This document shows, one piece after another, positions 2,324 to 37,422 of a DNA stretch of 38,519 nt (position 1 is the stretch's first letter; every line of letters begins with the position of its first letter). Source of the stretch: an uncultured Planctomycetota bacterium (GTDB lineage: Bacteria > Planctomycetota > PUPC01); assembly GCA_964490295.1 (NCBI GenBank), contig CAZBCO010000195.1:1-38519 (forward strand), written 5' to 3'. A program made the position numbers and the translations under genes. The notes beneath the pieces were generated by a model. It was not told the origin of the DNA, made no database searches, and was given only the letters and a program-made list of their open reading frames with translations.

Positions 2324-2695
<372 letters not shown>

Positions 2696-6014: not shown

Positions 6015-6019
6015 TCACG

Positions 6020-6667
6020 ATGTTGCAGTTTGATATTTATAATATGAACGGCGAGAAGGTGGACGTGCTGAGTATTGACGAGGCGACGTTCGGCGGCACG
6101 GTCAACAAGGCGGTCCTGCGTGAGGCGGTGCTGATGTATCAGGCCAACCGCCGAGCCGGCACCGCGAGCGCCAAGAACCGGTCGGAAGTGACCGGCACGC
6201 GCAAGAAGCCCTTCCGCCAGAAGGGAACCGGCCGCGCCCGCCAGGGTTCCTGGATCGCGCCCCACCATCGCGGCGGCGGCGTGCCCCACGGCCCGCACCC
6301 CCGCGACTACTCCTATGCGATCCCCAAGAAGGCCCGCCAGGCCGCCCTGAAGAGCGCCTTCCTCGACAAACTTCAGTCCGCCACCCGCGTGGTGGACCAG
6401 ATCGAGCTGGAGCAGCCCAAAACACGGGCCATCGCCGATATGCTCGCGGCCCTGGACGTCAATGGTTCCTGCCTGATCGCCACGCTCGGCGCGTCCGACA
6501 GCGTGGTCAAATCGGTGCGGAACCTGCCCAAGGTCACGATCAAGCGGATGAGCGACATCAACGCCTGGGACCTGCTCAGGCCGAAGCAATTTGTGGTCAC
6601 TCGCGCGGCGCTCGAAAGCGTCGTCGAACGGTTCAGCAACGAAGACAACAAAGACGGTAAAGTCTGA
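6020..6667 (+). CDS. rplD: 50S ribosomal protein L4
   Basis: 215 aa. Motif [37 protein letters not shown]. Confidence 0.96.
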
Positions 6668-6972
6668 TGAACGATCCGAGAAAAGTCATCATCGAGCCGG
6701 TTGTCACCGAGAAGAGCACCGAGCTGATCGAACGGCCGAACAAGCAGGGCGAGCCGGAAAACGCCTACACCTTCAAGGTGGCGAAGAAGGCCCGCAAGCC
6801 CGAAATCGGGCAGGCCGTCGAAGCGATCTTCAACGTCAAAGTCAAGTCGGTCCGAACGCTATGGCGGCGCGGCAAGGTGCGGCGCGGCCGACGTGGCGGC
6901 ACCAGCCACACGCCGGACTGGAAAAAGGCCGTGGTCACTCTTCAGCCCGGCCACAGAATCGAGTTGCACTAA
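6667..6972 (+). CDS. rplW: 50S ribosomal protein L23
   Basis: 101 aa. Motifs [40 protein letters not shown] overlap with the rplD stop. Confidence 0.95.
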
Positions 6973-6973
6973 T

Positions 6974-7807
6974 ATGCCGATCAAACAGAGAAAACCCACG
7001 ACGCCCGGCCAACGCACGATGCAATACTCGGACTTTGCCGAGATCACGTGTACGACGCCGGAAAAATCGCTGACCGAGCCGCTGAAGAAGTCGGGTGGCC
7101 GCAACGCCACCGGCCGGATGACGATGCGCCGCCGCGGTGGCGGGCACAAGCGCCGGTACCGCATTATCGACTTCAAGCGCAACAAGCACGGCGTGCCGGC
7201 CAAGGTCGCTACCATCGAGTACGATCCGAACCGTACCGCCCGGATTGCCCTGTTGCATTACGTGGACGGCGAGAAGCGCTACATCCTGGCCCCGCGCGGG
7301 CTGGCGGTGGGCCAGATGGTGGTCTCCGGTGAGGAGGTCGAGCCGCGTGTCGGCAACGCCCTCCCGCTGAAGAACGTCCCCCCGGGCACCCCGATTCATA
7401 ACCTGGAGCTGGTCCCCGGCGCGGGCGGCAAACTGGTTCGCGGCGCCGGCGTCTCCGCCACCTTGCAGGCCAAAGAAGGCAAGTATGGCCTGGTCGCTCT
7501 GCCGTCCGGTGAAATTCGCAAGATTCACTTGAACTGCTATTGCACCATCGGCCAGATGGGCAACGTGGATCACTCGAAGATCAGCTTGGGCAAGGCGGGC
7601 CGCAGCCGCTGGCTTGGCCGCCGTCCCAAGGTGCGCGGTATGGCGATGAACCCGGTCGCCCACCCGATGGGTGGTGGCGAAGGCCGCGCAGGCGGCGGAC
7701 GGGTCCCGGTTTCGCCCTGGGGCAAGCCCGCCAAGGGCGGGAAGACCCGCAGCAAGCGGGCCACGTCGAACACGTTTATCGTGCGCCGTCGCAGCAAGAC
7801 CCGATAG
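6974..7807 (+). CDS. rplB: 50S ribosomal protein L2
   Basis: [14 protein letters not shown]..., [49 protein letters not shown]. Tracked ORF (6893) trimmed to the ATG just after the rplW stop. Confidence 0.96.
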
Positions 7808-7825
7808 AGTCCGTAAGGAGTTGAC

Positions 7826-8089
7826 ATGTCGCGTTCGGTGAAAAAGGGCCCTTATGTGGCCGAGAAGCTGCTGAAGAAGGTCGAGCGGTCCGTCAATCGC
7901 GGCGGCGTCGAGCCGATTCAGACCTGGTCGCGGGCGTCGGTCATCATTCCCGACTTTGTGGGCCAGACGTTTATGGTGCATAACGGCCGCACGTTCACCC
8001 GTGTGTACGTGACGGAAAACATGGTCGGCCATCGGCTGGGCGAGTTTTCGCCCACCCGGGTCTTCCGGGGCCATTCGGGCCGGAAATAG
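7826..8089 (+). CDS. rpsS: 30S ribosomal protein S19
   Basis: [11 protein letters not shown]..., [39 protein letters not shown]. Confidence 0.97.
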
Positions 8090-8122
8090 TACGAACGCTC
8101 TTCCAGGAGCAGGAACAGGACG

Positions 8123-8461
8123 ATGGAAGCCAAAGCAAGACATCAGCACGCGAGAGTGTCGCCCACCAAGGTGCGGCCGGTCGCCAAACTGATCAAGAAC
8201 ATGCCGTTGCCCACCGCGTTGGATACGCTGCGCGTCAGCAACCTGCGCGGGGCTCGGCTGCTGGAAAAGGTGGTCAAGTCGGCTTGGGCCAATGCCATTG
8301 AAAAAGGCGGCCGACTCGACGAGGACGATTTTTACGTGACACGTGCGTATGTGGACGAAGCCCCGACGCTGAAGCGTTGGCGGGCCGGCGACCGAGGCCG
8401 AGTCCGGCCTATCTTGAAGCGCGGCTGCCACATCGCCGTGGTTTTGTCTGACCAGAGGTAA
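8123..8461 (+). CDS. rplV: 50S ribosomal protein L22
   Basis: 112 aa. Motifs ARVSPTKVRPVAKLIKN, YVDEAPTLKRWRAGDRGRVRPILKRGCHI. Confidence 0.96.
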   Translation: MEAKARHQHARVSPTKVRPVAKLIKNMPLPTALDTLRVSNLRGARLLEKVVKSAWANAIEKGGRLDEDDFYVTRAYVDEAPTLKRWRAGDRGRVRPILKRGCHIAVVLSDQR

Positions 8462-8464
8462 AGT

Positions 8465-9199
8465 ATGGGCCAGAAGATCAACCCCATCTCGCTGCGGCTG
8501 GGCATCACCGAATCCTGGCGGAGCCGGTGGTTCGCCGACAAGAAGCAATTCGGCGAATTGCTGGTCGCCGACCAGAAGATTCGGAGCTTCATCCACAAGC
8601 ACTACGAATTCGCGGGCATCCCGCGCATCGACATCGAGCGCACCAGTGCCCAAGCCCGGATTGCCTTGCACTGCGCTCGGCCGGGCGTGATCATCGGGCG
8701 CAAGGGCCAGGAAGTCGAACGGCTGCGTTCGGAGCTTGAGGCCCTCGCCGGGTGCCAGGTACACATTGACATCAAAGAGATCGCGAAGCCCGAAATGAGC
8801 TCCGGGCTGATCGGCCAGAGCATCTCCGAGCAGCTGAAGAAGCGCGCGGCGTATCGCCGGGTGCTGCGCAAGTCTGCCGAGACGGCGATTGAAGCCGGGG
8901 CTTTGGGCGTGAAGATCGAGCTCTCCGGCCGCCTCGGCGGGGCCGAGATGCGTCGGCGCGAGCGCGTGACGCTGGGCATGATCCCGCTGCACACGCTGGA
9001 TGCCTACATTGACTATTCCTTGACCAAGTGCGTCACCACCTACGGCGTGATTGGCGTCAAGGTCTGGGTGTACAACGGCGAAAAGCAAAGCCTGAAGGGC
9101 CAAAGCGCCCCGGCAGCCCGTTCGAAGCCGGCCGGCGCTCCCGCTGAAGATGTGAATCCCGCTGCGGCACCGGGCGCCGCGGTGGAAGGAGTGAACTGA
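8465..9199 (+). CDS. rpsC: 30S ribosomal protein S3 (Ala/Pro-rich C-terminal tail)
   Basis: [14 protein letters not shown]..., KH-domain [25 protein letters not shown]. Confidence 0.97.
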
Positions 9200-9618
9200 T
9201 GCCCCTGATGCCCAAGAGAGTCAAGCACCGCAAGGTTCAGCGCGGTCGCATAAAGGGCGAAGCCACGCGAGGCAACTATGTTGCGTTCGGTGATTACGGC
9301 CTCCAGAGCCTCGAACCGGGGTGGATTACCGCCCGCCAGATCGAAGCCGGCCGCGTCGCCATCAGCCACTATCTGGCCCGCGAGGGCAAGCTGTGGATTC
9401 GCGTCTTCCCGCACAAGTCCGTCACCGCACGGGCCGCCGAGACCCGGATGGGCAGCGGCAAAGGCGAGCCGGAATTCTGGGTCGCCGAGGTCAAGCCCGG
9501 CACGGTGATTATCGAAGTCGGCGGCGTCCCCGAAGAGGCGGCCATCGCCGCCCTCAACCGGGCCGCCCACAAGTTCCCCCTTCGTATGAAACTGGCCCAC
9601 AGGAGGCATGCCTGGTGA
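9199..9618 (+). CDS. rplP: 50S ribosomal protein L16
   Basis: [17 protein letters not shown]..., [34 protein letters not shown]. Confidence 0.97.
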
Positions 9619-9857
9619 AGCCGTCCGAAATCAGAGCCTTATCCGATGCCGAGCTGTTCAATGAGCTGGAAAACGCCGAGCAGCGTCAGTTTAACCTGCA
9701 CTTCCAGCGCACCACCCAGAACTTGGAGAGCACCGCGGAGTTGGGCAAGATACGAAAAGATATCGCCCGGTTGCGGACCATTATGGCTGAGCGAGCGCTG
9801 GAGCGCTCCGACGCGAACCGCCCCGAGGCCGATCAGAGTGAGGCGTCCGAATCATGA
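9615..9857 (+). CDS. rpmC: 50S ribosomal protein L29
   Basis: [31 protein letters not shown]... GTG 9615 overlaps the rplP stop (GTGA). AGGAGG at 9601-9606. Confidence 0.9.
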
Positions 9858-10120
9858 GCACGGAACGTAAGCCCCCACGGGCGGTGACCGGTGTGGTCAC
9901 CAGCAGCAAAATGAACAAGACCATTGTGGTCAAGGCCCAGCGCATGGTGCAGCACCCGCTGTACCGCAAGTATGTGCGCCGAGCCGAGGTGTTCAAGGCG
10001 CATGACGAGAATAACGAAGCCCGCTTGGGCGCACGGGTGCGCATCGCTGCCACCCGCCCGCTGAGCAAAACCAAGCGCTGGCGTCTGGTCGAAATCTTGG
10101 AACAAGGACAGGAAGCCTGA
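9854..10120 (+). CDS. rpsQ: 30S ribosomal protein S17
   Basis: 88 aa. Motifs VTGVVTSSKMNKTIVV, HPLYRKYVRR, RPLSKTKRWRLVEI. Confidence 0.96.
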   Translation: MSTERKPPRAVTGVVTSSKMNKTIVVKAQRMVQHPLYRKYVRRAEVFKAHDENNEARLGARVRIAATRPLSKTKRWRLVEILEQGQEA

Positions 10121-10123
10121 GTC

Positions 10124-10492
10124 ATGATTCAAGCGGAAACCCGGCTGGATGTGGCGGATAACAGCGGTGCGAAGCGCGTCGCCTGTATTAAGGTGCTGGG
10201 CGGCAGCCGCCGGCGCTACGCCAACATCGGCGACATTATTGTGCTGAGCGTCAAGAAGGCCGCCCCCAACGCCCCGATCAAGCAGGGCGAAGTCTGCCGC
10301 GGTGTGATCGTGCGAAGCACCAAGGGCCTGAGGCGGGCCGACGGGTCCTATGTCAAGTTCGACTCCAACGCCGTGGTGATTATCGGCGAGGATAAGAACC
10401 CGCGAGGCACGCGCATCTTCGGAGCCGTCCCCCGCGAGCTTCGGACCAAGAACTTTATGAAGATCATTTCCCTGGCGTCCGAGGTGGTGTGA
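10124..10492 (+). CDS. rplN: 50S ribosomal protein L14
   Basis: [28 protein letters not shown]..., RFDSNAVV-type core, [10 protein letters not shown]. Confidence 0.97.
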
Positions 10493-10500
10493 GGAAACCG

Positions 10501-10842
10501 ATGGAGATTCATAAGAACGATACAGTGGTGCTGCTCAAAGATTTCAGCGGGGCGACCCCGGTGCGCAAGGGCACAACCCACCGCGTCCTCCGCGTCTTCC
10601 CCAAAGCGGGCAAGCTGATCTGCGAGGGCGTGAACGTCAAGCACAAGCACGTTCGGGCCAACACGAACCGGGACTATCCGCGCGGCGGCATCATCCGCAA
10701 GGAAGCCCCGATCGACGCCTCGAACGTGGCCCTGTATTGCAACACCTGTGAGGGCAAGGCCCGCGCCCAGCGCAAGCGGGTCGATGGAAACGTCACACGC
10801 ATCTGTAAGCAGTGTGGCGGCGTGTTCGAACCGACAGCCTGA
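10501..10842 (+). CDS. rplX: 50S ribosomal protein L24 with C-terminal CxxC...CxxC zinc ribbon
   Basis: MEIHKNDTVVLL..., VNVKHKHV, GGIIRKEAPIDASNVAL, YCNTCEG...ICKQCGG. ATG 10501 lies 5 nt after GAGGA. An upstream in-frame GTG at 10489 is also possible. Confidence 0.92.
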   Translation: MEIHKNDTVVLLKDFSGATPVRKGTTHRVLRVFPKAGKLICEGVNVKHKHVRANTNRDYPRGGIIRKEAPIDASNVALYCNTCEGKARAQRKRVDGNVTRICKQCGGVFEPTA

Positions 10843-10862
10843 TGTTATTGGAGACGGGGTAC

Positions 10863-11405
10863 GTGGTGACCCTTTTGAAACAATATCAAACCGAAGTGGT
10901 TCCGGCTCTGCAAGAGCGTTTTCAATATAAGAACGTGATGGCCGTGCCGAAGCTCCAGAAAATTGTCCTGAACGCCGGCGTGGGTCGCGGCAGCGAGGAA
11001 AAAGAACGCCTGCAGCAGTCGCTCGACGACCTGACCGCTGTGGCCGGCCAGAAGGCCGTGCCCCGCAAGGCGCGCGTCTCGGTCGCCAACTTCAAAGTCC
11101 GCCAGGGCATGACCGTCGGCACGATGGTCACGCTGCGAGGCACCCGGATGTACGAATTCCTCGAACGCCTGATTGGCTTGGCGATCCCGCGAATTCGCGA
11201 CTTCCGCGGCCTCTCACCCAAGGGCTTTGACGGCCACGGCAACTATTCGTTCGGGATTAACGAGCAGGTGGTGTTCCCCGAAATCGATCCCGACGGCGTC
11301 AAGGTCACGCAAGGCATGCACATCACCTTGGTCACCAGCGCCCTGACCGATGACGAAGGCCGCGAGCTGCTGCGCCAAATGGGCATGCCGTTCGCAGAAA
11401 ACTGA
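10863..11405 (+). CDS. rplE: 50S ribosomal protein L5
   Basis: (V)VTLLKQYQTEVVPALQERFQYKNVMAVPKLQKIVLNAGVG... GTG 10863 gives an N-terminus that aligns residue for residue with typical L5. GGAG lies 9 nt upstream. ATG 10842 is an alternative start. Confidence 0.9.
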   Translation: MVTLLKQYQTEVVPALQERFQYKNVMAVPKLQKIVLNAGVGRGSEEKERLQQSLDDLTAVAGQKAVPRKARVSVANFKVRQGMTVGTMVTLRGTRMYEFLERLIGLAIPRIRDFRGLSPKGFDGHGNYSFGINEQVVFPEIDPDGVKVTQGMHITLVTSALTDDEGRELLRQMGMPFAEN

Positions 11406-25190: not shown

Positions 25191-28100
25191 ATGCTGCGCC
25201 TCATGAACCAAATGACCGAGAAGCACGGGAAGCTGTTGCTGGTGGTCCTCGCCGCCTTCCTGATGGTGGTGTTCCTCATCCCGGACCAGTTCAGCGCCCC
25301 GCCGGAACCGTCGCTGGGGACCTTGTACGGCGACACCATACACGAAGCCTCGGTTCAGGCGATGAACACCCGCTGGCGCCGCATGGGGCTGCGGCCCATC
25401 GGACGCGACCACGAGGACACCGTCCGCAACATGTACGATTCCTACCTGCTGCTGCTGGCCGCCCGCCGGCACGGCGTCCGCGTCGGCCCCAAGGTGATTG
25501 AGGAGGCCCTCCGCCACGAGCCGGCCCAAACCCAACGCATCGAATATGTTCTGGCTGACCCCGAAGCCCTGGCCGGCCAGATCGAACCCTCGGACGCCGA
25601 ATTGCGCGCCTGGTACGACAAACATCGGGCGGACCAGACCGACAGCTTCGAAGACGCCCGCGCATCGGTGCTTCAGGAGGTGCGGCAGGAGCGGGGCCGC
25701 GAGATGGCCCGCCGCAAGATTCAGGAAGCGCAAGCCCGGATCGCCGCGGCCCCCCTGCAGGGGCATGAACAGCGGAGGGCGTTCCGCGCCGCCGCCGAGA
25801 CCACCGGCCTCACTTATGAACAGACCGAGCGTCCCTTTACCGAAAAATACGCGGCCCAAGCCCTGCCCGACCTGGCCCTGAGCTTCGTCTCCACCAGCTC
25901 CAACCAGCCGGGCGACCACGGCCTGCCGCCCGAATTCAAGAAGGCCCTGTTCAACATCCCCGTCGGGCAACCCTCCGAGGTGATGCGCTCCGGCGACAAG
26001 CTGTTCGTCTTCCGCGTGGTCGAGGCCACGGCCGGCTTCAACGCGGAGGGGAAACTGGCGCTCCGGGACTTGGGGTGGTCGATCGACCGCTTCGCGGTGA
26101 TTCGCCAATATGCCAATTACGAAGCGTTGTTCCGGGATAAGATTCGGCTGGAGCCGTCCGAGGCGGCCCTGGCGGTGAACGAGCATATGACCGTGCAGAA
26201 ATATCTCCGGCTGGTCTGCGGCGGTTCGGCCCAGGCGACGCTGGTCACCGAGGATATGCTCGAGCAGCTGCTGGCTTACGAGAATGAAGAGGTCAGCGCC
26301 GTGGCGGCCCGTATCCCCATCGCCCCTTTCCAGAAGGCCGAGACCCCGGACGAAGCCCAACTGATCGCCTACTACAACAGCCGGCGGCGCGTACCCCAGC
26401 ACCCCGACGTGCCTAATTTCGGCTACCTGCGGATGGAAACCATTCAGATCGAATATGTGCTCGCCCCGCAAAAGCGCTTTGAGGAGCAGGCCCGAAGCAG
26501 CATCAGCGACGAGCAGATCCGGGCCTACTACGAGCGCCACAAAGACACCAAGTTCGCCCGGGCCGACGACCAGGGGGTCAAGGCGTTCGCCGAGGTGCGC
26601 AGCGAGATCGTGCGCGACCTTCGGCAGGCCGCGGCCTCCACCGCCGCGCGCGAGGTGTTGGCCGACCTCATGCGCCGCGCCCAGACCTCGGCGGGTGCCG
26701 TGCGGCCGCTGAAGCCGCTGGCCGATAAGCTGGGCCTCGAATACCGCGTCAGCCCGTTCTTTGCCCAACACGAAATCAAGTCCATGGTGCCCGAACTGGC
26801 CGACGCCGAGACCTTTGCCGAGCAGGCCTTCAGTAAGGGCCTGCGCCCCTACACGACCCCGCTTCCCGAAGGTGGGGAAATCAAAATCCACCCCTTCAGC
26901 CCCGTGCTCGAAAGCCAGGGAGCCCAATTCATCTTCCGCCTCCGCGCCTACCGCGACCGACAGGCGCCCGAATACTCGGAGCTGGACGAGGCGGCTCGCC
27001 AGCAGGTGGTCCGGGATTATCGGCAGGTGCAGGCCGTGCAACGTGCGCTTGAGGCGGCCCGCTCGATACGCGCCGAGATCATGAGCGAAACGCTCGCGGC
27101 CATCGCCGCGGAAAACGGGCTGGAAGTCCACCGGGCGGTAATCAAGGCCGCGCCCGACGCCGAGGCCCCGTCACCGGTGCCTCCCACGCTGCGCGAGCAC
27201 GTGGTCCGCGAGATGAAGGCCGTGCCCGGCGAAACCGCGGTGCTGTTCAAGGACGCCGACGCCTGTTACTCCGTGGTGGTCACCGCCATCGGCAAGGCCA
27301 TCGACGAGACCCACATCGCCTATCTCCGCTTCGACCCGAAAGCGATGCTCAGTTCGGTGGAGCCTGACCCCAGCGAGGTGGCCGAGCGGGCGCAGGACAT
27401 CCGGGAAAAGCTCAACGCCGAGTCCTCCGGCGACTCCGAAACGCCGGAAACGAAGCCCAGCGAACCCACCGCCGAGGACCTGGCCCAGGCGCGGGCCGCT
27501 CTCGTCGCCGAACGCCGCGCGCTGCCTATCGAAGCCCGTTACCCGGACTATTTCCAGCAGCGTCTGGTCCAAGCCTTCCGTTCGCACATCGCCTCCACTC
27601 CTTTGGAGTTCGACCAAGAGGTTCGGCTGGACGTGGCCTCCCCGGATTTCTTCCATATCGACGATACCGCCCCGCTGGGCGGCGATGCCGCGTTGATCCG
27701 CGCGGCGTTCGGCCTGCAACGCGGCGAGCTGAGCGGGCCGGTGACCGGCGACCACAGCGCGGCCGTCATGTGGCTGGAGGCCGACACCACGCGCGACGAG
27801 GTCAAGGTGGAGATGATCTCGGTGCGCCCCAGCCAGTACGATCCGTTGAACGTGAAGGTCAGCGACAAGGACGCCCGGGCCTACTACGAAGCCCACACCG
27901 CCGAATTCGCCACCCCGCCCCGCGCCCGCGCGGAGTATCTGTTCGCGTCCTTCCGCAAGGTTGCCGCGGCCTTCGAGGCCGAAATTTCGGAAGAGGCCAT
28001 CGCCACCTACTACGAAGCCAACCGGGCGGAGGCCTATGCCAACCGGCCGCTGGACGACACGCTGAAGGGCACCATTCGCAGCCTGCTGGCCCTGAACCGG

Positions 28101-29783
28101 GCCAAGGCCGAGGCGGCCAAAACGGCCATCGTCGCCGCCGCCAAGGCCGTTCCGGAGGCGTCGTTCGAACAGGTTGCCCAGGACTCCCCGCTGCACGCCG
28201 GCGTCACCCCGATGCTCCGTCCCTCGGACAACGCCATTGATTTTATCGGCTACGCCCCGACTCTGGTGCAGAAGATTCTCGCCGCCAAGCCGGGCGAGCT
28301 GAGCGAGCCGGTGGAGGTGGATGACGGCTGGGTTCTCTTCCGCGTCACGGAACGCGTCGAGAGCACCACGCCGCCCGTCGAGGTCGCGCTGCCCGCCGCC
28401 CGCGACCGGGTCCGCAAGCAGCGGCTCGAAGCCCAGGCCAAAGCCGGGCTGGAAGCGATCCGTGCGGCGTTGGCGAAGGACGCCCAGGCCGGCATCGCGG
28501 ACTTGGTGAAACGCCCCGCCCTGATGGCGGCGTTGCCCTTCGGCCCCCGCGTCGAGACCACGCAATTCTTTGACCAGGACCGCGCCCTGAACATCCCGCA
28601 GATGACCAGCGCCCTGCGCACCGAGGTGTTCGCCACAAAAGCCGGCGAGACCACCCCGGTGATTGTCGGCGAGGACCTGGTTCAGTTCGCTCGCGTGATC
28701 GAAGCCAAAAAGAACCGACTGGTCCGCGTTCACGCGGTGCTGGTCGGCGCCGACCTCTTCTCCGGTAAGGAACAGGTCAGCGAGGCCGACGCCCAAGCCC
28801 ACTACGCGGCCCATCAAGACCGCTATCGGCAGCCCGTCCGTTATGAAACCGAGTATGTGATCGCCAGCGCCTGGGCGCTGGAAAACGAGATGAAGCCCTC
28901 CGAGGAGGAGATCGAGGCGGCCTATCAACAGCTCAAGCAGAGCTTCGCCAAAACGGACGGGGCCGAGACCACGTATAAACCCCTCAGTGAGGTCCGAAGC
29001 CAGGTGCTCGCGGCCCTGCGAACCCACCAGGCCAATGCCAGGGCCGAGGAGCTGGCCCGCAAGGCCCGCGAGCTGTTGACCCAGGGCAAGACCCTGAAGG
29101 AGGTCGCGGATGAGCTGACGGGCCTCCAGTATGTGGACCAAGAGACCTACCAGCCGGGCGACGAGAACGCCCCGTGGGATTTCCGCCGCGTGGCCGGGCT
29201 GGACGCCTTCCTGGAATCGGCCAAGGCCGGCGACTTCAGCCCCGTGCTGCGCTCGTACTCCGGGCGGCTGATCGTGCGGCTCAAACAGGTGCATCCTGCG
29301 GGCGTGCCCGAATTCCAGAAGATCGCCGAAGAGGTAAAGGACGACGTGGCCACGCAACGCGGCCTGGCCGAGGCCCGCAAGATGATTGAGACGGTGGTGT
29401 CCCGGATCGCCAATCCCGAATCCCCCAGCGTCGAGGCCTTGCGTCAGGCGGCAGAGCAATTCACCGTCACCCAGCGGGTGAAAGAGCGGCTGCGCCCGAT
29501 GGACATCCCCTACCACAAGCGCAGCGAGCCGCAGAACTTCTCGCGGGCGATAACGCCCCGGTTGTTTACGCTGCTGCCCGGGCAGGTGTCCGAGCCGCCG
29601 ATTCTCGACGGCGAGAAGAGCCAGGAGTGCTATCTGGCCGCGCTGGTCGGCCGTCGCCAGGGCGAATCGCCCTACGCGGAGTGGATGGTTCGCCAGTTCG
29701 GCATGGTGGCCGCTCGTCAACGTGTGGCCAAGCTGATCGACAGCATCTGGGCGGATTTCCGGGCGACGCCCGCGCAGCAATAG
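25191..29783 (+). CDS. Giant (1530 aa) membrane-anchored protein made of repeated PpiD/SurA-N/parvulin-like chaperone modules
   Basis: One N-terminal hydrophobic helix (KLLLVVLAAFLMVVFLI). At least 7 helix signatures of the A-[YW]-Y-x-x-H/N type and at least 7 'G-E/Q/D-x-S-x-P-V + hydrophobic strand' signatures, typical of PpiD/SurA/PrsA. Protein-like composition, unlike the Arg/Gly/Ala-rich antisense ORFs. Confidence 0.75.
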   Translation: MLRLMNQMTEKHGKLLLVVLAAFLMVVFLIPDQFSAPPEPSLGTLYGDTIHEASVQAMNTRWRRMGLRPIGRDHEDTVRNMYDSYLLLLAARRHGVRVGPKVIEEALRHEPAQTQRIEYVLADPEALAGQIEPSDAELRAWYDKHRADQTDSFEDARASVLQEVRQERGREMARRKIQEAQARIAAAPLQGHEQRRAFRAAAETTGLTYEQTERPFTEKYAAQALPDLALSFVSTSSNQPGDHGLPPEFKKALFNIPVGQPSEVMRSGDKLFVFRVVEATAGFNAEGKLALRDLGWSIDRFAVIRQYANYEALFRDKIRLEPSEAALAVNEHMTVQKYLRLVCGGSAQATLVTEDMLEQLLAYENEEVSAVAARIPIAPFQKAETPDEAQLIAYYNSRRRVPQHPDVPNFGYLRMETIQIEYVLAPQKRFEEQARSSISDEQIRAYYERHKDTKFARADDQGVKAFAEVRSEIVRDLRQAAASTAAREVLADLMRRAQTSAGAVRPLKPLADKLGLEYRVSPFFAQHEIKSMVPELADAETFAEQAFSKGLRPYTTPLPEGGEIKIHPFSPVLESQGAQFIFRLRAYRDRQAPEYSELDEAARQQVVRDYRQVQAVQRALEAARSIRAEIMSETLAAIAAENGLEVHRAVIKAAPDAEAPSPVPPTLREHVVREMKAVPGETAVLFKDADACYSVVVTAIGKAIDETHIAYLRFDPKAMLSSVEPDPSEVAERAQDIREKLNAESSGDSETPETKPSEPTAEDLAQARAALVAERRALPIEARYPDYFQQRLVQAFRSHIASTPLEFDQEVRLDVASPDFFHIDDTAPLGGDAALIRAAFGLQRGELSGPVTGDHSAAVMWLEADTTRDEVKVEMISVRPSQYDPLNVKVSDKDARAYYEAHTAEFATPPRARAEYLFASFRKVAAAFEAEISEEAIATYYEANRAEAYANRPLDDTLKGTIRSLLALNRAKAEAAKTAIVAAAKAVPEASFEQVAQDSPLHAGVTPMLRPSDNAIDFIGYAPTLVQKILAAKPGELSEPVEVDDGWVLFRVTERVESTTPPVEVALPAARDRVRKQRLEAQAKAGLEAIRAALAKDAQAGIADLVKRPALMAALPFGPRVETTQFFDQDRALNIPQMTSALRTEVFATKAGETTPVIVGEDLVQFARVIEAKKNRLVRVHAVLVGADLFSGKEQVSEADAQAHYAAHQDRYRQPVRYETEYVIASAWALENEMKPSEEEIEAAYQQLKQSFAKTDGAETTYKPLSEVRSQVLAALRTHQANARAEELARKARELLTQGKTLKEVADELTGLQYVDQETYQPGDENAPWDFRRVAGLDAFLESAKAGDFSPVLRSYSGRLIVRLKQVHPAGVPEFQKIAEEVKDDVATQRGLAEARKMIETVVSRIANPESPSVEALRQAAEQFTVTQRVKERLRPMDIPYHKRSEPQNFSRAITPRLFTLLPGQVSEPPILDGEKSQECYLAALVGRRQGESPYAEWMVRQFGMVAARQRVAKLIDSIWADFRATPAQQ

Positions 29784-29804: not shown

Positions 29805-32613
29805 GTGGCGGAAGACAAATACATCCTGGTCACCGGCGCCCGCGAACATAACCTCAAGAACGTCCACGTGCGCATTCCGCGCGATCAACTGGTGGTCATC
29901 ACCGGCATCAGCGGGTCGGGCAAGTCCTCCCTGGCGTTCGACACGCTCTTTGCCGAGGGCCAGCGCCGCTACGTCGAGAGCCTGTCGGCCTCCGCCCGCC
30001 AATTTCTCGAACAGATGGAGAAGCCGGACGTAGATTCGGTGGAGGGGCTTCCGCCCACCATCTCCATCGAACAGCGCCAGGCCGGCTCGACGCCCCGTTC
30101 GACGGTCGCCACCACCACCGAGATTTACGACTATCTCCGCCTCCTCTTCGCCCGCGTCGGCGAGCCGACCTGCCACCTGTGCGGGAAGCCGATTACTCGC
30201 CAGACCGCTCAGCAGATCGCCGACGCCGTTCGGGAGCTGGAGGCCGGGGCTCGGGTGATGATCCTGGCCCCCCTGGTGCGCGGGCGCAAGGGCGAATACC
30301 GCGAGGTGTTCGACCGCGTGAAGCGCGAGGGCTATGTCCGCGCCCGCGTGGACGGCAAGCTGGTCGAGGTCGATGAGCCGCCGAAGCTGAACAAGAAGCT
30401 GACACACACCATCGAGGTCGTCGTGGACCGCCTGGTGATGAAGGCGGACCTGGGCGCGCGGCTGCAAGACTCCGTCGAGACCGCCCTGGGCCTGGGCGCG
30501 GGGCTGGTCACCGTGGCCAGAGAACAAAAAGACGGCACCTGGGCGGACACGGTTTACAGCGAGCTGTACGCCTGCCCGGACTGCGGCACCGGGCTGGAAG
30601 AGCTGACCCCGCGGATGTTCTCCTTCAACAGCCCTTACGGGGCGTGCCCGGTCTGTTCGGGGCTGGGCGTTCGGCTGGAGATCGACCCGGAGCTGGTGGT
30701 GCCCGACCCGCGCCGCTCGCTGGCCGATGGGGCGGTGGAGGCGTTCAAGCCGGGGCCGGGCATGCCGGTCTGGTTCGCCGCCCGGCTGCGCCGCGCCGCG
30801 GCCGAGTTCGGCATCTCGCGCCAGAAGCCCTTTGGCGAGCTCCACGCCCAGAAGCGGCGGCTGTTGCTCCACGGGTCGACGCCCGCGGCCGAGAACAAAT
30901 ACGGGGCCTGCTACGATGGGGTCATTCCCATTCTCCAGCACCGGTTCGACCATTCCGAGAGCGACGGCGTTAAACAACGGATTATGCAGTACATGAGCGA
31001 ATTGCCGTGTACCGCCTGCCACGGGGCGCGGCTGCGGCCGGAGTCGTTGGCGGTAAAGGTCCGCGGCCAGTCGATCAGCGAGTGGTGCTCGCTCTCGGTG
31101 GGCGAGGCCAGCCGGGCCTTTGAGGCGCTGACCTTCAATCGCGAGCAGGCGGTCATCGCCCGCCAGGTGCTCAAGGAAATCCGCGAGCGGCTGCGCTTCC
31201 TGGTGGATGTCGGCCTCAGCTATCTGACCCTCGACCGAGCCAGCGGGACGCTGGCGGGCGGCGAGGCCCAGCGCATCCGGCTGGCCACGCAGGTCGGTTC
31301 CGGCCTGGTCGGCGTGTGCTACGTGCTCGACGAGCCTAGCATCGGCCTGCATCAGCGCGACAACCAGAAGCTGCTCAAGACGCTCCGGCGGCTCCAGGGG
31401 CTGGGCAACTCGGTGATCGTGGTAACACGACGAGGAGACCATCCGGCTGTCGGACCACGTCATCGACCTCGGCCCCGGAGCGGGCGAGCACGGCGGCGAG
31501 ATCGTCGCCCAGGGCACCGCCGAGGAGATTCAGGCCGTGCCACGCTCCGTCACCGGGCAATACCTCTCCGGGGCGAAGACCATCGCCGTGCCCAAGCCGC
31601 GCCGCCAGGTAAACCCTAAGCGGGCCATCGTGGTGCGCAAGGCCACGCTCAACAACCTGAAGCAGGTCACCGCGACGTTCCCGCTGGGCGCCTTGATCTG
31701 CGTGACCGGGGTGTCGGGTTCGGGCAAGAGCTCGCTGGTCACCGAGACTCTGTACAAGGCCGCGGCCCATGAGTTGAATCGCACCAAGGACCGTGGCGGG
31801 CCGCACGAGGGCATCGACGGGCTGGAGCAAATCGACAAGGTGATCGAGATTGATCAATCGCCCATCGGGCGGACGCCGCGCTCCAACCCGGCAACCTATA
31901 CCGGGGCCTTCACCGAAATCCGCTCGCTCTTCGCAATGACCAAGGAGGCCAAGATCCGCGGCTACAAACCCGGACGCTTCAGTTTCAACGTCAAGGGCGG
32001 GCGCTGCGAGGCCTGTGAGGGGCAGGGCACCAAACGGATCGAAATGCACTTCCTGCCGGATATTTTTGTGAAGTGCGAAACCTGCGGCGGCCTGCGGTAC
32101 AACCGCGAAACCCTCGAAATCCGCTACAAGGGCAAGAACATCGCTGAGGTGCTCCACATGACCATCGAAGAGGCGGTGAGCTTCTTCGAGAACTTCCCCA
32201 AGCTCCAACGCGTCCTTCAAACCCTGGCCGACGTGGGGATGGACTACATCCGCCTGGGCCAGTCCAGCACCACCCTCAGCGGCGGCGAGGCCCAGCGGGT
32301 GAAGCTCTCCTCCGAGCTGGGCAAGCGAGCCACCGGCCGTACGCTCTATATGCTCGATGAGCCGACCACCGGCCTGCATTTCGCGGACATCAGCAAGTTG
32401 CTTGGCGTACTCAACCGCCTGGTGGATCGCGGCAATACCGTGCTGGTGATCGAACATAATCTGGACGTGATCAAATGCGCCGACTGGGTGATTGACCTCG
32501 GGCCGGAGGGTGGCGACGCCGGTGGACAGATAGTGGCGACCGGCACACCTGAAGACCTCACCGCTATCAAGGCCTCATATACCGGTCAGTTTCTGGCCGA
32601 AATCCTCAAATAA
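29805..32613 (+). pseudogene. uvrA: Excinuclease ABC subunit A, reading frame broken by a 2-nt deletion near 31423-31425
   Basis: Fragment 1 (29805 onward): [31 protein letters not shown]-type TLAGGEAQRIRLATQ, YVLDEPSIGLHQRD, then GNSVIVV. UvrA sequence then continues in the +1 frame from 31426: [31 protein letters not shown]...SVTGQYLSG...[12 protein letters not shown]...[11 protein letters not shown]...[11 protein letters not shown]...VIEHNLDVI. In-frame TAA in the second frame at 31423-31425. Confidence 0.9.
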
Positions 32614-32670
32614 TCTCGCTTTTTGACTGGCTTGGGCGCCCGGCTATTCCGACCGTTACTGTAGATTATT

Positions 32671-32974
32671 TGTGGGTAATATCACCTTTTACCACAAACG
32701 GCCCACCGATACCCCACTTAATATCTACAAGTTATCCACAATGACACTGTGGATAACTTGTGGGTTTGTGGTGGGCCGTCTTGGGAATGCCTTGGGGGTT
32801 TCTTGGGGATATCTTTTGATAAGTCATTGTCCGTTTCCGCCCCTGTGGACTATCGCGAGTTGCCAACAAGTATCCCCAACTTATCCACAGGTACTCCCAT
32901 CGGCGCTTGCAATTCCAATGCCTTGTCAATAAGAGAGTTACGTCTTCAAATGCTGTGTTTTCAACAAATCCACA
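32671..32974. promoter_or_regulatory. Cluster of DnaA boxes (oriC-, datA- or DARS-like DnaA-binding locus)
   Basis: Perfect TTATCCACA at 32732-32740 (+), 32748-32756 (as TGTGGATAA) and 32881-32889 (+). One mismatch at 32671-32679 (TGTGGGTAA). Two mismatches at 32844-32852 (TGTGGACTA) and 32966-32974 (AAATCCACA). Sits in a low-GC spacer between the convergent genes uvrA and the PP2C gene. Confidence 0.7.
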
Positions 32975-33015
32975 GTCTATTGTATTATGATGATTAGTTT
33001 TATATAGAGAGAATA
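32975..33015. other. AT-rich tract adjoining the DnaA-box cluster (possible unwinding element)
   Basis: gtctattgtattatgatgattagttttatatagagagaatac. This is by far the most AT-rich stretch in the window and lies directly next to the last DnaA-like box. Confidence 0.4.
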
Positions 33016-34293
33016 CTAATCAAGAATATCGAGGATGATCAACGACATATCGTCGCTGACTTCCGTCTGTCCTGCCTGGCGGGCTGTAGAAAGTATGGTG
33101 CTCGCCAATTGATCGGCTTTGACCCCGTGGTTGCTGGTGATAATGCGGCAAAGTCCTTTGGAGCCGATCATTTCTCCCCGGACATCCTGAGCCTCGATGA
33201 TACCATCCGTGTAGAACACCACCCGGTCGCCGCGTTGGATCGGGACGGTGTCCTGGCCGAAACCCACCACGCAGTCTTCATCGGCCCCCAGAATGATGTT
33301 TTGGGATTTCAATTCGATGCAATTCTGTTGTCGACCTCTCTGTAAGAAGGGGGGCGGGTGGCCCGCTCCGGAGTAGGTGAGGGTGCCTTCCCGCACATCG
33401 ATGAGCGCCGCAAAGAAGCTGAGCAGGATGCCGATGGGTTGGAATTCCTGGCAGAAGAGTCGGTTCAGCTTTTTGACCACGTCCAGCGGTTCCGTGCCGT
33501 AGGCAAAGGTGGTATCGGTGTGTCGTTTGAGCATTGGCCGAACCTGGGAGTTGACCACTTCGGCCACCAGGGCCGATGCCACCCCGTGCCCGGTGACATC
33601 GCAAATGGTGATGAACAGGCTCTCCTCCGAGAGCGGGAAGATGCCGGCGTGGTCGCCGCCGACGCCGGTGATCGGGACGTAGCGGACCTCGGCGTGGAAG
33701 TGTTTGGCGTCGTAATTTTTGGGGATGGACTTGCGTTGCACGACCTCGGCGAGGGCTAGGTCGCGCTGCATCATCTGTTGGCGTCTTTCGAGCCGTTGGT
33801 TGACCTCGCTCAGGTGACGGCGGCTCTCGTGAACGTAGGCTTCCGCCTGGGCGGACATCGAGCAGTCGAAGGCCCGCAGGGCGGCTCGCGTGACCGCCGG
33901 GACGTGTTCTTTGGAGAGCTGCTCCCGTTGACAGGCCCGCCAGATCAACTCGAGCACGCCGTCTCGAATAATACTGAGGTAGGCGTTGGCATCGGCCACA
34001 CTGAGTCCGGCGGCAAAATTGATGCCGCCAACCTCCACGTGCCATTCGGCCGCGGGGCCGCAGCTCTTCATGCACATTCCGTAGAGCGAGATCGCCTGCT
34101 GGAGCCATTCATCCGATTCGGCGATACGAAATTGGCGGACCACATTAGCCAGTTGCGTCCGGGCCAACATGCGCTCGCGACAATAGGAGACCAGCGTCGG
34201 AAGGTTGTTCTGTATCAAACGGAGCACCGTGTCCGTGGCTTGGATTTCGTGGTTCATATCATCGGCATAAATATCGGTGGGCTTCGCAGGCAT
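33016..34293 (-). CDS. SpoIIE/PP2C-family serine phosphatase (RsbU-like) with ~190-aa unassigned N-terminal sensor-like domain
   Basis: C-terminal half: LALAEVVQRKSIP...HAEVRYVPITGVGGDHAGIF, ITICDVTGHGVASAL, YSGAGHPPPF, VVFYTDGIIEA, SDDMSLIILD (PP2C metal-binding Asp motifs). The N-terminal helical domain was not recognised with confidence. Confidence 0.85.
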   Translation of the reverse strand: MPAKPTDIYADDMNHEIQATDTVLRLIQNNLPTLVSYCRERMLARTQLANVVRQFRIAESDEWLQQAISLYGMCMKSCGPAAEWHVEVGGINFAAGLSVADANAYLSIIRDGVLELIWRACQREQLSKEHVPAVTRAALRAFDCSMSAQAEAYVHESRRHLSEVNQRLERRQQMMQRDLALAEVVQRKSIPKNYDAKHFHAEVRYVPITGVGGDHAGIFPLSEESLFITICDVTGHGVASALVAEVVNSQVRPMLKRHTDTTFAYGTEPLDVVKKLNRLFCQEFQPIGILLSFFAALIDVREGTLTYSGAGHPPPFLQRGRQQNCIELKSQNIILGADEDCVVGFGQDTVPIQRGDRVVFYTDGIIEAQDVRGEMIGSKGLCRIITSNHGVKADQLASTILSTARQAGQTEVSDDMSLIILDILD

Positions 34294-34296
34294 GGA

Positions 34297-35235
34297 CTAT
34301 AGCTTTCCGCTCCAGCTTTCAATGAGCCATTGCTTCTCTGAGGTCTTGACCAACTGAAACGCGATTTCCGGAACTTCCCTGGCCCATCCGGCGGGCGAGG
34401 TGAGCAGCAGCTTGCATCGGGCTGTGGCTTGACTCTTTTCCGGCTTTCCAGAGTCAAATCGTACCTCCACCGCCGAGATGGTGTGCAGGGAGCAGGGTTT
34501 GGAGCGTAACGCGGCCATCCCCTGCTTTTTGATGTCTTGGGCCAGGGCGCTTTCCGGGGCGATCAGGTCGAGAATCGTCTTGGCATCGTCACGGTTGAAC
34601 GCGACGATGAACTCGCGTATCAGGCTCTGAATGGCTTCGTCTCCCCTTTGTGCGGCGGCATATTCACGGGCCATAGCCTCCAGGGGTTTGAAGAGATCGG
34701 TGATCACCGCGAGGGCTTCCGGGTCCTGGCCCTTCTCGTGTCGCAACTGCAATTCGGTTTTCCATTTTTCGAGCTGGCTCAAGGTCTTGTCGGCACCTTG
34801 GGAGGGGACCGACGACTCGACATAGGCGACCAGCAGCATTTTGAGGATGGACATCGCCTCACGGGGTATTTCGCCGGTGTTGGCGGTCAACAGGTTCACG
34901 ATCCCCGTGCTTCCGGTCTGGCTGGCTCGGACATGATTCTCGGTCATCTGATAGGCCAGAGCTTTCACGTAGTAAGCACGCCAAACATATTGGGGCTCAT
35001 CACAACGCAGAATCACGAAGTCGGCGATACGGATCGCTCGCTCGTAATGGGCCGCTCGCTCGACGTACAACAGGCTCCGGGCATCGGCCAGCATGCGATG
35101 GGCTTCCAACCCGGTAATAACCTCGTCTTCGGTCGTTTTGACGGAACGTCGCCCCCACCAGAGTCCGCAACCGGAGAGGGTTATGGCCGCGAGGCAGAGC
35201 GTCGCAAGGGCCATGGGAAAATCGGGTTTTCGCAT
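34297..35235 (-). CDS. Lipoprotein of unknown function (helical N-terminal part, possible NTF2-like C-terminal domain)
   Basis: Signal peptide with lipobox MALATLCLAAITLSG|C. Stop lies 3 nt before the PP2C start. The C-terminal fold assignment (SLIREFIVAFNRDDAKTILDLI...WLIESWSGKL) is a guess. Confidence 0.7.
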   Translation of the reverse strand: MRKPDFPMALATLCLAAITLSGCGLWWGRRSVKTTEDEVITGLEAHRMLADARSLLYVERAAHYERAIRIADFVILRCDEPQYVWRAYYVKALAYQMTENHVRASQTGSTGIVNLLTANTGEIPREAMSILKMLLVAYVESSVPSQGADKTLSQLEKWKTELQLRHEKGQDPEALAVITDLFKPLEAMAREYAAAQRGDEAIQSLIREFIVAFNRDDAKTILDLIAPESALAQDIKKQGMAALRSKPCSLHTISAVEVRFDSGKPEKSQATARCKLLLTSPAGWAREVPEIAFQLVKTSEKQWLIESWSGKL

Positions 35236-35241
35236 CAGGAC

Positions 35242-35688
35242 TTACTCCTCCCGGTTCTGCCCGGCGCGCGGCCCGCCGGAGCACAGGTACCAGGCCAAAT
35301 ACACCCCGAAGCCATATCGTAGCACCTTCAGCCATCCACCCCAACGAAATAATTCCAGCCAACGCATCGGGACCCACACGATATCCGTCAGGTATAACGT
35401 ATCGGCCATCAGCAGCGAGACGTCACTGGCCAGCATGGCCATCAGCGCGGCCCCGGATCCGATCAGGCCCTCGCGCCGGGAGCGTTGACGCGAGAACAGC
35501 ACCACGCCCAGGGCGGCGCAAAAGGCGGCGAGCGGCTCGTAGGCGATGATTCGCCACGTGGTGTATCGCTGAACCAGCGAGAGCACGGCGATCACGAAGA
35601 CGCCCAGGGCTGCACCCGCAGCGGCCCCTGCAAGGCATACGTTCCGCTCGGATGTCGCGCGACCGGTGACGAGGGGGTTATCGCTCAA
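35242..35688 (-). CDS. Small integral membrane protein (3-4 predicted TM helices), unknown function
   Basis: Hydrophobic runs VCLAGAAAGAALGVFVIAVLSLV, PLAAFCAALGVVLF, LIGSGAALMAMLASDVSLLMA, YGFGVYLAWYL. Its start overlaps the upstream gene's end by 11 nt. Confidence 0.65.
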   Translation of the reverse strand: MSDNPLVTGRATSERNVCLAGAAAGAALGVFVIAVLSLVQRYTTWRIIAYEPLAAFCAALGVVLFSRQRSRREGLIGSGAALMAMLASDVSLLMADTLYLTDIVWVPMRWLELFRWGGWLKVLRYGFGVYLAWYLCSGGPRAGQNREE

Positions 35689-37030
35689 GGGTGCCTCTTT
35701 GCCTCAACAGGTCGAGCGGGTCGCCCATAAACAGTTCCAAATCACGTTTCGGGCCTTCCAGCAGGCGTCGGGCCATCCGCTCGGCATCCAGGGCCGTAGC
35801 AACCGCCGCTAATTCATGAGATCGATAAACCCGCTTCAGGGCCTCGGAGGGTTCGGAGGTTCGCAATTCCTCTCCCAAGGCCCGTTGCTTCTCAAGCAAC
35901 GCGGTGATGCGCACCTGGAACGCCTCCGGCCGGCCGCTCTGCTGTTCCTGCTGTTGTTGCTGGATGGCTCTGGCGACCATCATCGGCCAGCCCGGCAAGA
36001 GCGTCAGCGGGCGCCATTCGTGCATCATCGCATCGATGCGGGCGGCGTGCATATAGTGCAGCAATCGCCCTCGCATCAGGAAGGCGACGGCCGCCGCATA
36101 GTCCGGATTGCTGCGTTGGGCAAGTGAATGGGCGATATGCAGTCCCAGGGCCATCGGCCCACTGGGTTCCTCCGCCATCGGGTTGTTGCTCGAACCCCTC
36201 GGCGGCCGAATGTTGTATCCGGTCATCCCGATGAGATACACCTCGGCCTCCCGGTGGCCACCCTTCACCAGGCCGTCGTAAACGCGGGCCAGGGCCTCGA
36301 CGATCTCCTGGCGGTGTGTTGTGGCCTTGGCCTTTTCCTCGTCGCTGCGGGGCGTGTAGAGGCTGTCGATAAACAGCCGCTCAATGGCCGCCGCGCAGAC
36401 CCGGCCCGCCCCGGTCTGGGTTTGCGTGGCCAGATAAGCCCTGGCGTCGGGCGTCAGCGGACGCGGCAGGCGAAGGAAGGTCGCTTCACAGAACGCCGTC
36501 TCCTCGGCATGACGCCGGCAGGCCCGCAGCATCACCTTGGTCGCTGGTTCGAGGTCCTCGCCGGTGTAGGTCCAACGTGAGAGTTGTTGCATCGTGTCGA
36601 GCCGGTCTTCCGGACTTTGCTTCAGCAGCAGGCGTTCCAACCGAGCGGGTGACGGCGGCCACGGAGGGATGTCGAGCAGGGCGCGTGAGACGAACCGCAA
36701 GGCCCACAACGGCGGCGTGGCCGCCGCGCGAAACGGCAGCAGGGCCGACTCCGTCACAAACCCGCGCGAAGTCGGCTGCCAAAGCATCGCCCCGGTGTCA
36801 TACCACGCATCATCGAGCGCCGTCGCGGGATGCACCACCACGGTATCGAGCACACCGGCGGCCAGGCAGGCGGGCAGAACCACCGGGGCGGTCACCACCT
36901 TCCAGGCCGTGCTCTCAGGGACCAGTGCCCCTTCGGTCGCATTCATCAGGCGGCGGTTGCGCGGGTTCATAAAAGCGCAGGAGGCGCACAACAACGGCAG
37001 CACGGCAACGAGCAACAGGCGTTTGTTCAC
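35678..37030 (-). CDS. 450-aa probable lipoprotein: N-terminal domain paralogous to the upstream 131-aa lipoprotein, plus ~330-aa helical extension of unknown function
   Basis: MNKRLLLVAVLPLLCAS|CAFMNP... Residues ~18-120 align with the 131-aa protein (CAF-NP-N, PE-T, LA-G-LD--VVHP--AL, DT---LW--PT). Contains a QQQQQEQQ tract. ATGA overlap with the upstream gene. Confidence 0.7.
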   Translation of the reverse strand: MNKRLLLVAVLPLLCASCAFMNPRNRRLMNATEGALVPESTAWKVVTAPVVLPACLAAGVLDTVVVHPATALDDAWYDTGAMLWQPTSRGFVTESALLPFRAAATPPLWALRFVSRALLDIPPWPPSPARLERLLLKQSPEDRLDTMQQLSRWTYTGEDLEPATKVMLRACRRHAEETAFCEATFLRLPRPLTPDARAYLATQTQTGAGRVCAAAIERLFIDSLYTPRSDEEKAKATTHRQEIVEALARVYDGLVKGGHREAEVYLIGMTGYNIRPPRGSSNNPMAEEPSGPMALGLHIAHSLAQRSNPDYAAAVAFLMRGRLLHYMHAARIDAMMHEWRPLTLLPGWPMMVARAIQQQQQEQQSGRPEAFQVRITALLEKQRALGEELRTSEPSEALKRVYRSHELAAVATALDAERMARRLLEGPKRDLELFMGDPLDLLRQRGTLER

Positions 37031-37422
37031 GGTTCTGATGTCCTTGAAGGCCGGAGATCAAAAAGACTTTCGCCCACCCAGTAGAAGGCAAACGCCACCG
37101 GAGTCAGAGCGGCCTTGGGCACCGCTTTGAACGCCTGGGCAGCAAACGAGCCGGTGGGCTTCGCCCACAGCACGCGGTAGGTATCTTCTCCTGCAAATCC
37201 CAGAGCTTGGAGCGGATGCACCACGGCGATGTCCAAGGCCCCGGAGGCCAAACCCAGGGGCACCGTCAGCGGCGACCACAGGGCTTTGCCGCCCGTGGTT
37301 TCGGGCGTGATGACCTGATCCAAGCCGGTCAACAGCGGCGTATTGTCCGGATTGGTGAAGGCACAGCCCCCACTGAAGAGCGCTGCGATCATCAAGCCTA
37401 AACAGATTCTACGCATCATCAT
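37027..37422 (-). CDS. 131-aa lipoprotein, possibly YceK/YidQ-like
   Basis: MMMRRICLGLMIAALFSGG|CAFTNPDN... has a clear lipobox. First gene of the minus-strand operon. The family assignment is tentative. Confidence 0.7.
   Translation of the reverse strand: MMMRRICLGLMIAALFSGGCAFTNPDNTPLLTGLDQVITPETTGGKALWSPLTVPLGLASGALDIAVVHPLQALGFAGEDTYRVLWAKPTGSFAAQAFKAVPKAALTPVAFAFYWVGESLFDLRPSRTSEP

Follow-up and report, generated by a model that had tools for sequence, protein, structure and literature searches.

In Escherichia coli, oriC lies away from dnaA, and its high-affinity DnaA boxes nucleate arrays of weak boxes that are separated by 2-bp gaps and run in opposed orientations; the box adjacent to the unwinding element points toward that element. 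The basal unwinding system of Bacillus subtilis has been dissected experimentally and reads TTATCCACA AATCCACA GGCC CTA CTA TTA CTT CTA CTA, with ACTTATCCACAAATCCACAGGCCC and TACTATTACTTCTACTA as the oligonucleotides of the system (PMC8287927 supplement). Pseudomonas oriCII, a conserved region with origin-like properties, can replicate plasmids but is not needed by the chromosome, which shows that such regions can stay conserved across families without being a working origin (PMC13438810). In the DARS core, boxes I and II meet head-to-head across 5 bp, and box III has the direction of box II (PMC6868365).

For the Planctomycetes, our literature search found no experimental description of an oriC. 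Predictions place it at 5.45, 1.28, and 1.40 Mb of the sequence records in Rhodopirellula baltica, Pirellula staleyi, and Planctomyces brasiliensis, respectively (PMC8287927 supplement). Three of the four Planctomycetia predictions in that supplement lie above 1 Mb, as measured from the record start rather than from dnaA, which would fit origins situated elsewhere than at the start of the record.

Here, we analyze a non-coding spacer between uvrA and a SpoIIE/PP2C phosphatase gene in a 38.5-kb stretch of planctomycete DNA (the window). Judged by its sequence, the spacer is best explained as an oriC-type DnaA assembly and unwinding element that is conserved in an uncultured Planctomycetota clade. 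We lean toward its being the chromosomal origin of this clade, situated, as in E. coli, away from dnaA.

Genomic Setting of the Spacer

The spacer has a G+C content of 44.5%, against 63% for the whole window, and lies between the convergent 3′ ends of uvrA and the PP2C gene, as had been described in an earlier note on this DNA (Table 1). The 32 kb to its left are all on the + strand and point toward the spacer, running from rpoC through the genes for S12, S7, EF-G, S10, SecY, RpoA, L17, tRNA-Val, ThrS, IF3, L35, L20, PheS, and a 1530-aa PPIase to UvrA. To its right, the PP2C gene closes a five-gene operon. That dnaA is not nearby, as first noted, holds for the whole 38.5-kb window and for 10 kb around the locus in every relative; within the same limits, we found no dnaN, gyrB, parAB, or gidAB, and a search for a parS-like site showed none to be present. 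The spacer, therefore, lacks dnaA/dnaN and the other origin-linked neighbors that are common, though not obligatory, at oriC. Its flanks differ from those of the described systems: B. subtilis oriC lies between dnaA and dnaN and E. coli oriC has gidA and mioC as its neighbors, whereas the spacer separates uvrA from a convergent operon. Pseudomonas oriCII, upstream of gidA, sits in a promoter and regulates gidAB-parAB, whereas the spacer is bounded by two gene ends and has no promoter to regulate.

Table 1. Coordinates of the spacer, its flanking genes, and its predicted elements in the window
Feature	Position	Strand	Remarks
uvrA	29805..32613	+	Conserved left flank; interrupted in the window by a frameshift near 31425
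Spacer, uvrA stop to PP2C stop	32614..33015		Predicted DnaA assembly region and unwinding module
Left-facing double box TGTAGATTA-tt-TGTGGGTAA	32660..32679	-	2 and 1 mismatches; 11-bp phasing; repeat D3
Right-facing double box ATATCTACA-ag-TTATCCACA	32721..32740	+	2 and 0 mismatches; 11-bp phasing; repeat D4
Left-facing double box TGTGGATAA-ct-TGTGGGTTT	32748..32767	-	0 and 3 mismatches; repeats I1, D3
Degenerate left-facing box-like run TGGGAATGCC TTGGGGGTTTC TTGGGGATATC TTTTGATAA	32782..32822	-	Period ~11 bp; repeat D2
Single degenerate box TGTGGACTA	32844..32852	-	2 mismatches
Right-facing double box GTATCCCCA-ac-TTATCCACA	32870..32889	+	2 and 0 mismatches; 11-bp phasing; repeat D4
Tandem box beside the trios, TTTTCAACA + AATCCACA	32958..32974	+	Compare B. 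subtilis boxes 6 and 7, TTATCCACA + AATCCACA
Linker GTCT, 4 nt	32975..32978	+	G+C-rich in most relatives (GGCC, GCCC, GGCG)
Six DnaA-trio-like repeats, ATT GTA TTA TGA TGA TTA on the + strand	32979..32996	-	3′-TAA CAT AAT ACT ACT AAT-5′
AT-rich tract, candidate DNA-unwinding element	32979..33020		Adjoins and slightly overlaps the PP2C stop codon
SpoIIE/PP2C phosphatase gene	33016..34293	-	Conserved right flank; last gene of the conserved five-gene operon
Five-gene operon ending in the PP2C gene	33016-37422	-	Conserved across the clade

DnaA Boxes in the Window

The box scan bore out the three perfect TTATCCACA boxes of the earlier note, at 32732 (+), 32748 (-), and 32881 (+), all of them in the spacer and none elsewhere in the 38.5 kb; it also recovered the inverted pair TTATCCACAatgacacTGTGGATAA at 32732-32756 and the 1-mismatch box TTACCCACA at 32671 (-). 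With up to one mismatch allowed, the window holds 11 matches where 2.8 are expected, a count reached in 0 of 100 shuffles. With up to two, 16 of its 66 matches fall within 32660-32974. Degenerate boxes proved more numerous than the earlier note had counted (at least two with 2 mismatches): beside the three perfect boxes and the one 1-mismatch box, about 12 with 2 mismatches lie in the same 315 bp, making this a box cluster with high-affinity consensus sites of the kind expected at oriC.

The spacer contains double boxes (Table 1), and those at 32721..32740 (+) and 32748..32767 (-) meet head-to-head across a 7-bp gap. The layout resembles E. coli oriC in that weak boxes, spaced by 2-bp gaps, form arrays of opposite orientation and in that the unwinding-proximal box faces the candidate element. 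It differs from E. coli oriC in that we saw no GATC clustering in the window’s spacer and identified no IHF or Fis site there.

A Predicted Unwinding Module at the PP2C End

A predicted module of DnaA box, GC linker, DnaA-trios, and AT-rich DNA, missed in the earlier note, is the strongest origin-type feature of the spacer. A gap-free alignment of 18 sequences at the PP2C end shows this one module, shared by all of them and the best-conserved part of the spacer, in which a degenerate tandem box is followed by a 4-nt linker, six 3-nt-periodic repeats, and AT-rich DNA. The 18-locus consensus reads TAACCCCAA, AACCCACA, GSCS, and TTA TTA TTA TGA TGA TTA and then becomes AT-rich. The upstream box, TAACCCCAA in the consensus, is TTTTCAACA in the window and TTATCAACA in the related locus L002; the second box, AACCCACA in the consensus, is AATCCACA in both. 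On the complementary strand, the consensus triplets are 3′-AAT AAT AAT ACT ACT AAT-5′. Trios 1-3 of the window have the required middle A (- strand), and across the alignment this A (T on the + strand) is present in 17/18, 14/18, and 15/18 sequences for trios 1, 2, and 3, respectively.

The module has the element order and orientation of the B. subtilis oriC (incC) system (Richardson 2016; PMC6669920; PMC8287927). Its trio-proximal box in the window and in L002 is identical to the B. subtilis AATCCACA, and the whole tandem box of L002 (TTATCAACAAATCCACAGG) is one base apart from that of B. subtilis (TTATCCACAAATCCACAGG). The linker is 4 nt long in both systems and is GGCC in the locus L013 as in B. 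subtilis, and in both, three or more trios have A in the middle position of the complementary strand and are followed by AT-rich DNA. The trios themselves differ, being mostly 3′-AAT-5′ and then 3′-ACT-5′ here and GAT in B. subtilis, as does the clade’s consensus box AACCCACA.

Under a published search rule, a box may carry up to 2 mismatches and stand up to 16 bp from the trios, of which there must be three or more (3′-NAN-5′, middle A) in the correct orientation (PMC8287927). The window contains such an arrangement in AAATCCACA (2 mismatches), GTCT, and 3′-TAA CAT AAT-5′. By itself, this rule is permissive, and the weight of the evidence for a candidate module is in its conservation and register. 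The conservation of the module could in principle be explained by other constraints.

The AT-rich tract beside the trios (32979-33020), a candidate for the unwinding element expected at oriC, occupies the same place in all relatives. Its G+C content of 0.17-0.20 is the lowest in the window for windows of 30-41 nt. The claim that this is the most AT-rich run of the window, therefore, holds at that scale, with a tie at 41 nt (5489-5529, in the fusA-rpsJ spacer), and fails at 60 nt, where 5473-5532 marginally beats it. Elsewhere in the spacer, at 32698-32730, the sequence CCGATACCCCACTTAATATCTACAAG resembles the start of the unwinding module in relatives (e.g., CCGATACCCCAAAACCCACAACCGTTATTA in L168) and may represent a second, decayed copy of that module.

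Conservation among Relatives

We collected the orthologous loci L002, L003, L005, L007, L009, L011-L013, L086-L090, and L166-L171. Relatives of the PP2C protein came only from metagenomes and from metagenome-assembled genomes (MAGs) labelled Planctomycetota, at 48-72% identity. A scan of GTDB genomes with the PP2C protein alone returned no relatives, scans of GTDB and metagenomes with the PP2C alignment returned MAG and metagenome orthologues and no complete genome, and a word-indexed search for PPIase homologues, aimed at cultured Planctomycetes, returned only eight, all of them members of the clade. Wherever a locus extends far enough, the genes follow one another as ThrS-IF3-L35-L20-PheS-PPIase-UvrA and converge on the five-gene operon ending in PP2C; past the operon, gene content differs among loci. 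The orthologous non-coding spacer is ∼370-460 bp long (17 loci).

The DnaA boxes are conserved with it. The 17 orthologous spacers (6.6 kb) contain 20 perfect boxes, against one in 273 kb of flanking sequence, an ∼800-fold enrichment; for boxes with at most one mismatch, the counts are 59 and 19, a 128-fold ratio of densities. Within most loci, box density is highest in the spacer, and four loci (L090, L166, L007, and L005) have no perfect box. Pairs of boxes in the same orientation at exactly 11 bp start-to-start occur 40 times (0.025 in shuffles), with a further 24 cases at 22-23 bp, and right-facing boxes followed by left-facing ones occur 8 times at 16 bp start-to-start (the 7-bp gap) and 11 times at 27 bp. 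The head-to-head junction of double boxes is a layout conserved across the clade, and relatives also have degenerate left-facing runs resembling the one at 32782..32822. Conservation of the boxes downstream of uvrA, which the earlier note had named as a check, is thus found in the relatives, and the proposed link of the cluster to DnaA is supported by ∼17 conserved loci, by the enrichment of perfect boxes, and by the exact 11-bp phasing. The architecture of the spacer, the phasing and orientation of its boxes, and the conservation of position and register extend across ∼12 distinct lineages.

Several independent assemblies (L001, L011, L086, L090, L007, L012, and L172, the last two being the same MAG) break inside or within ∼1 kb of the spacer or between the PPIase gene and uvrA. 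These breaks might reflect strain variation or a change of coverage there.

Strand Composition and Gene Orientation

We looked for a switch of skew at the spacer, both in raw sequence and at 4-fold degenerate sites of called genes, over up to 10 kb on each side. Raw GC skew was weak and noisy. At 4-fold sites, averages were -0.1 to -0.35 for the left-hand genes and about 0 for the operon. Operon skew correlated across genomes with neither uvrA skew nor PPIase-gene skew, and the same-strand control, uvrA against the PPIase gene, gave r = 0.11. These results indicate that the skew test is powerless except in L007 and that most of the genomes have no measurable replication skew; skew was negligible or uninformative in 10 of 12 genomes.

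L007 is the only relative with strong strand asymmetry. At its 4-fold sites, the 3′ end of uvrA has 11 G and 91 C, the coding skew of the operon is +0.35, and that of further operon-strand genes is +0.27. To the left and right of the spacer, over at least 10 kb, G is enriched on one and the same physical strand, without a skew switch, although the uvrA side amounts to 679 nt. At face value, forks would cross the L007 spacer coming from the operon side, a point against its being an origin. This argument is limited by its single genome, by the short uvrA side, and by L007 itself, whose boxes are the weakest and whose trio-proximal box is the most degenerate of the set. In L168, its closest relative, the coding strand of the operon is G-enriched (+0.19), which is the wrong sign for an origin, and the left-hand genes are unshifted.

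A skew minimum 9 kb from the spacer in L007 was considered as an origin and rejected, as it coincides with a low-GC BglII-type restriction-modification island. This island (659-1907, 2115-3218) encodes a BglII-like endonuclease and an MT-A70 methylase and adjoins a gene for subunit A of a bacterial topoisomerase VI (Topo VI-A), homologues of which (68-84% identity) are widespread in Planctomycetota and other MAGs. When we sought to extend L007, the exact Topo VI-A protein was found on a 1.5-kb contig only, and the closest long contig (L173) is without the PP2C operon.

From an origin at the spacer, one fork would run head-on through uvrA, the translation genes, and the entire rpoC-str-S10-spc-alpha supercluster. 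The earlier note had weighed this against oriC. The gene arrangement is as it described, and the supercluster would indeed be met head-on, but the objection is weak in this phylum, because Planctomycetes are reported to have no gene-strand bias. Leading-strand gene fractions are 0.50 and 0.51 in two species (PMC4070872), and the median of the phylum is near 50% (PMC11040001). The note’s preference for a role like that of datA or DARS, which rested on the head-on argument and was reached with the unwinding module overlooked, loses its support.

Discussion

From the arrangement of these elements, we infer DnaA binding, unwinding, and probable origin use at the spacer in vivo. DnaA would first occupy the three consensus boxes, which would nucleate cooperative filling of the neighboring weak boxes, 2 bp apart (11-bp phasing), in arrays that face each other. 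The rightmost tandem box (TTTTCAACA, AATCCACA), together with the 4-nt linker, would place an ATP-DnaA filament on the - strand trios (3′-TAA CAT AAT...-5′). This filament would stretch the - strand and open the adjacent AT-rich tract (32979-33020), where the helicase would load. In favor of an origin are the box cluster, the phased and opposed arrays, the unwinding module, the AT-rich element, the typical size, and the deep conservation of both flanks. Against it are the absence of origin-linked genes, the convergent flanks, and the L007 skew, as well as the relatives without a perfect box and the permissiveness of the trio rule.

These objections leave a distinct, if lesser, possibility that the spacer is a conserved origin-like DnaA locus that does not initiate and is traversed by forks. 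It might then be a dormant or conditional second origin, as in the case of oriCII, or a site that regulates the pool of DnaA through titration, ATP hydrolysis, or nucleotide exchange, as do the B. subtilis clusters and E. coli datA/DARS; its copy number would then change at a fixed time in the replication cycle. The strong asymmetry of L007 without a switch at the spacer fits such a locus, as does the G-enriched operon of L168, although the skew evidence comes essentially from one genome, with 679 nt on one side, and 10 of 12 genomes are uninformative. Genes on both sides are mostly on the + strand except for the 4.4-kb PP2C operon, consistent with a fork running straight through; neither dnaA nor dnaN is nearby, and the strength of the boxes differs among relatives. 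The spacer shares with oriCII, a precedent for such a locus, a conserved, origin-like DnaA-box cluster away from dnaA, and oriCII’s ability to replicate plasmids while being dispensable on the chromosome (PMC13438810) is the kind of behavior that a dormant origin would show; oriCII, for its part, lies close to the true origin. With DARS1, DARS2, and datA, it shares the form of a non-coding DnaA-box cluster, and the conserved head-to-head junction with same-direction partners recalls the DARS core (PMC6868365), but with a gap of 7 bp rather than 5 bp (8 instances, 16 bp start-to-start) and a double box on either side. The spacer also has many more boxes than DARS or datA, in addition to the trios and the AT-rich unwinding module. 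This module, the best-conserved part of the spacer, weighs against a non-initiating locus: we know of no mention of a box, GC linker, trio, and AT-rich module in the accounts of datA, DARS, and the B. subtilis DnaA-box clusters and, to our knowledge, no DnaA-trio-bearing locus has been reported outside oriC. It is less likely than not, although the L007 skew points that way, that a complete unwinding module has long been conserved at a site that forks merely pass; if so, such a trio-bearing locus would serve as a conditional second origin or else represent a new kind of DnaA-control site, one engaging single-stranded DNA.

Explanations that do without DnaA are improbable even when pooled, whether they invoke a regulator palindrome, a terminator, a small RNA, or a replication terminus. 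The earlier note had suggested that the palindrome might bind a non-DnaA dimeric regulator, and the convergent genes might instead share a hairpin terminator or a small RNA. As single-stranded DNA, 32695-32785 does fold into a long hairpin (-28 kcal/mol, z = -7.7), and a scan of the spacer gave a single sigma-70-like promoter match (TCAACA, 16 nt, TATTAT) and a single terminator-like hairpin, each at the level expected by chance. Rfam searches at gathering and E-value thresholds, however, gave no family, with generic hairpin matches far below the gathering score, and the spacers are otherwise too diverged for a conserved RNA. The repeated unit is the exact DnaA consensus, ∼800-fold enriched in the 17 spacers, and the palindrome turns out to be one junction of two phased arrays in which most boxes are direct repeats at 11 bp, an arrangement that a palindrome-binding dimer does not explain. 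We consider this whole group of readings very improbable and the suggested regulator unsupported. A terminus or dif-type site, to which we assign still less probability, would account for the genes that point at the spacer from both sides and for the G-rich coding strands of the right-hand genes in L168 and L007. The coding strand at the uvrA end of L007 is, however, strongly enriched in C, opposite in sign to what a fork coming from the left would give; past the 4.4-kb operon, most genes are back on the + strand, no dif-like XerC/XerD core was seen by eye, and the DnaA boxes, their phasing, and the trios would go unexplained. On the strength of the L007 uvrA skew and the DnaA-specific architecture, the terminus reading was rejected.

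If the spacer is the origin, a planctomycete clade seen only in metagenomes would gain a sequence-defined oriC, along with an anchor for read-depth growth estimates and for genome closure. It would also extend the B. subtilis-type basal unwinding system, nearly base for base, into the Planctomycetota. Replication starting there would run head-on into uvrA and the entire ribosomal-protein/RNA-polymerase supercluster, in keeping with the absent gene-strand bias of the phylum, and would offer a natural test case for the tolerance of replication-transcription conflicts. If it is not the origin, the spacer would be a DnaA-trio-bearing locus outside oriC, the more surprising outcome.

Additional Features of the Window and Related Loci

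DNA adenine methyltransferase genes (D12 class, N6_N4) occur within 10 kb of the locus in L168 (2797-3678), L173 (403-1272), and L166 (1-203).

In the window, uvrA occupies two ORFs (29805-31619 and 31537-32613), with a frameshift at ∼31425 that falls within the conserved VVEHDE motif, where gtggtaacacgacgag reads as a GAA codon minus 2 nt. The gene is intact in relatives (934-990 aa), and the split copy is either an assembly error or a real pseudogene. Between pheS and uvrA, the clade always has the 1530-aa protein, which contains four PPIC-type rotamase stretches (window 25191-29783). The proteins of the five-gene operon are ∼130, 420-450, 148-160, 312-320, and 425 aa long, and the equivalent operon in L002 lies at 6861-11266. 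The four proteins encoded upstream of PP2C gave no Pfam or NCBIfam match; the N-terminal half of the PP2C phosphatase (∼215 aa) is clade-specific and well conserved.

The str/S10 clusters (window 5389-6667) look non-canonical. There is no tuf between fusA (3329-5389) and rpsJ (5664-6014), and the ORF directly after S10 matches L4, not L3. The spacer between fusA and rpsJ (5473-5532) is AT-rich to the same degree as the candidate unwinding element.
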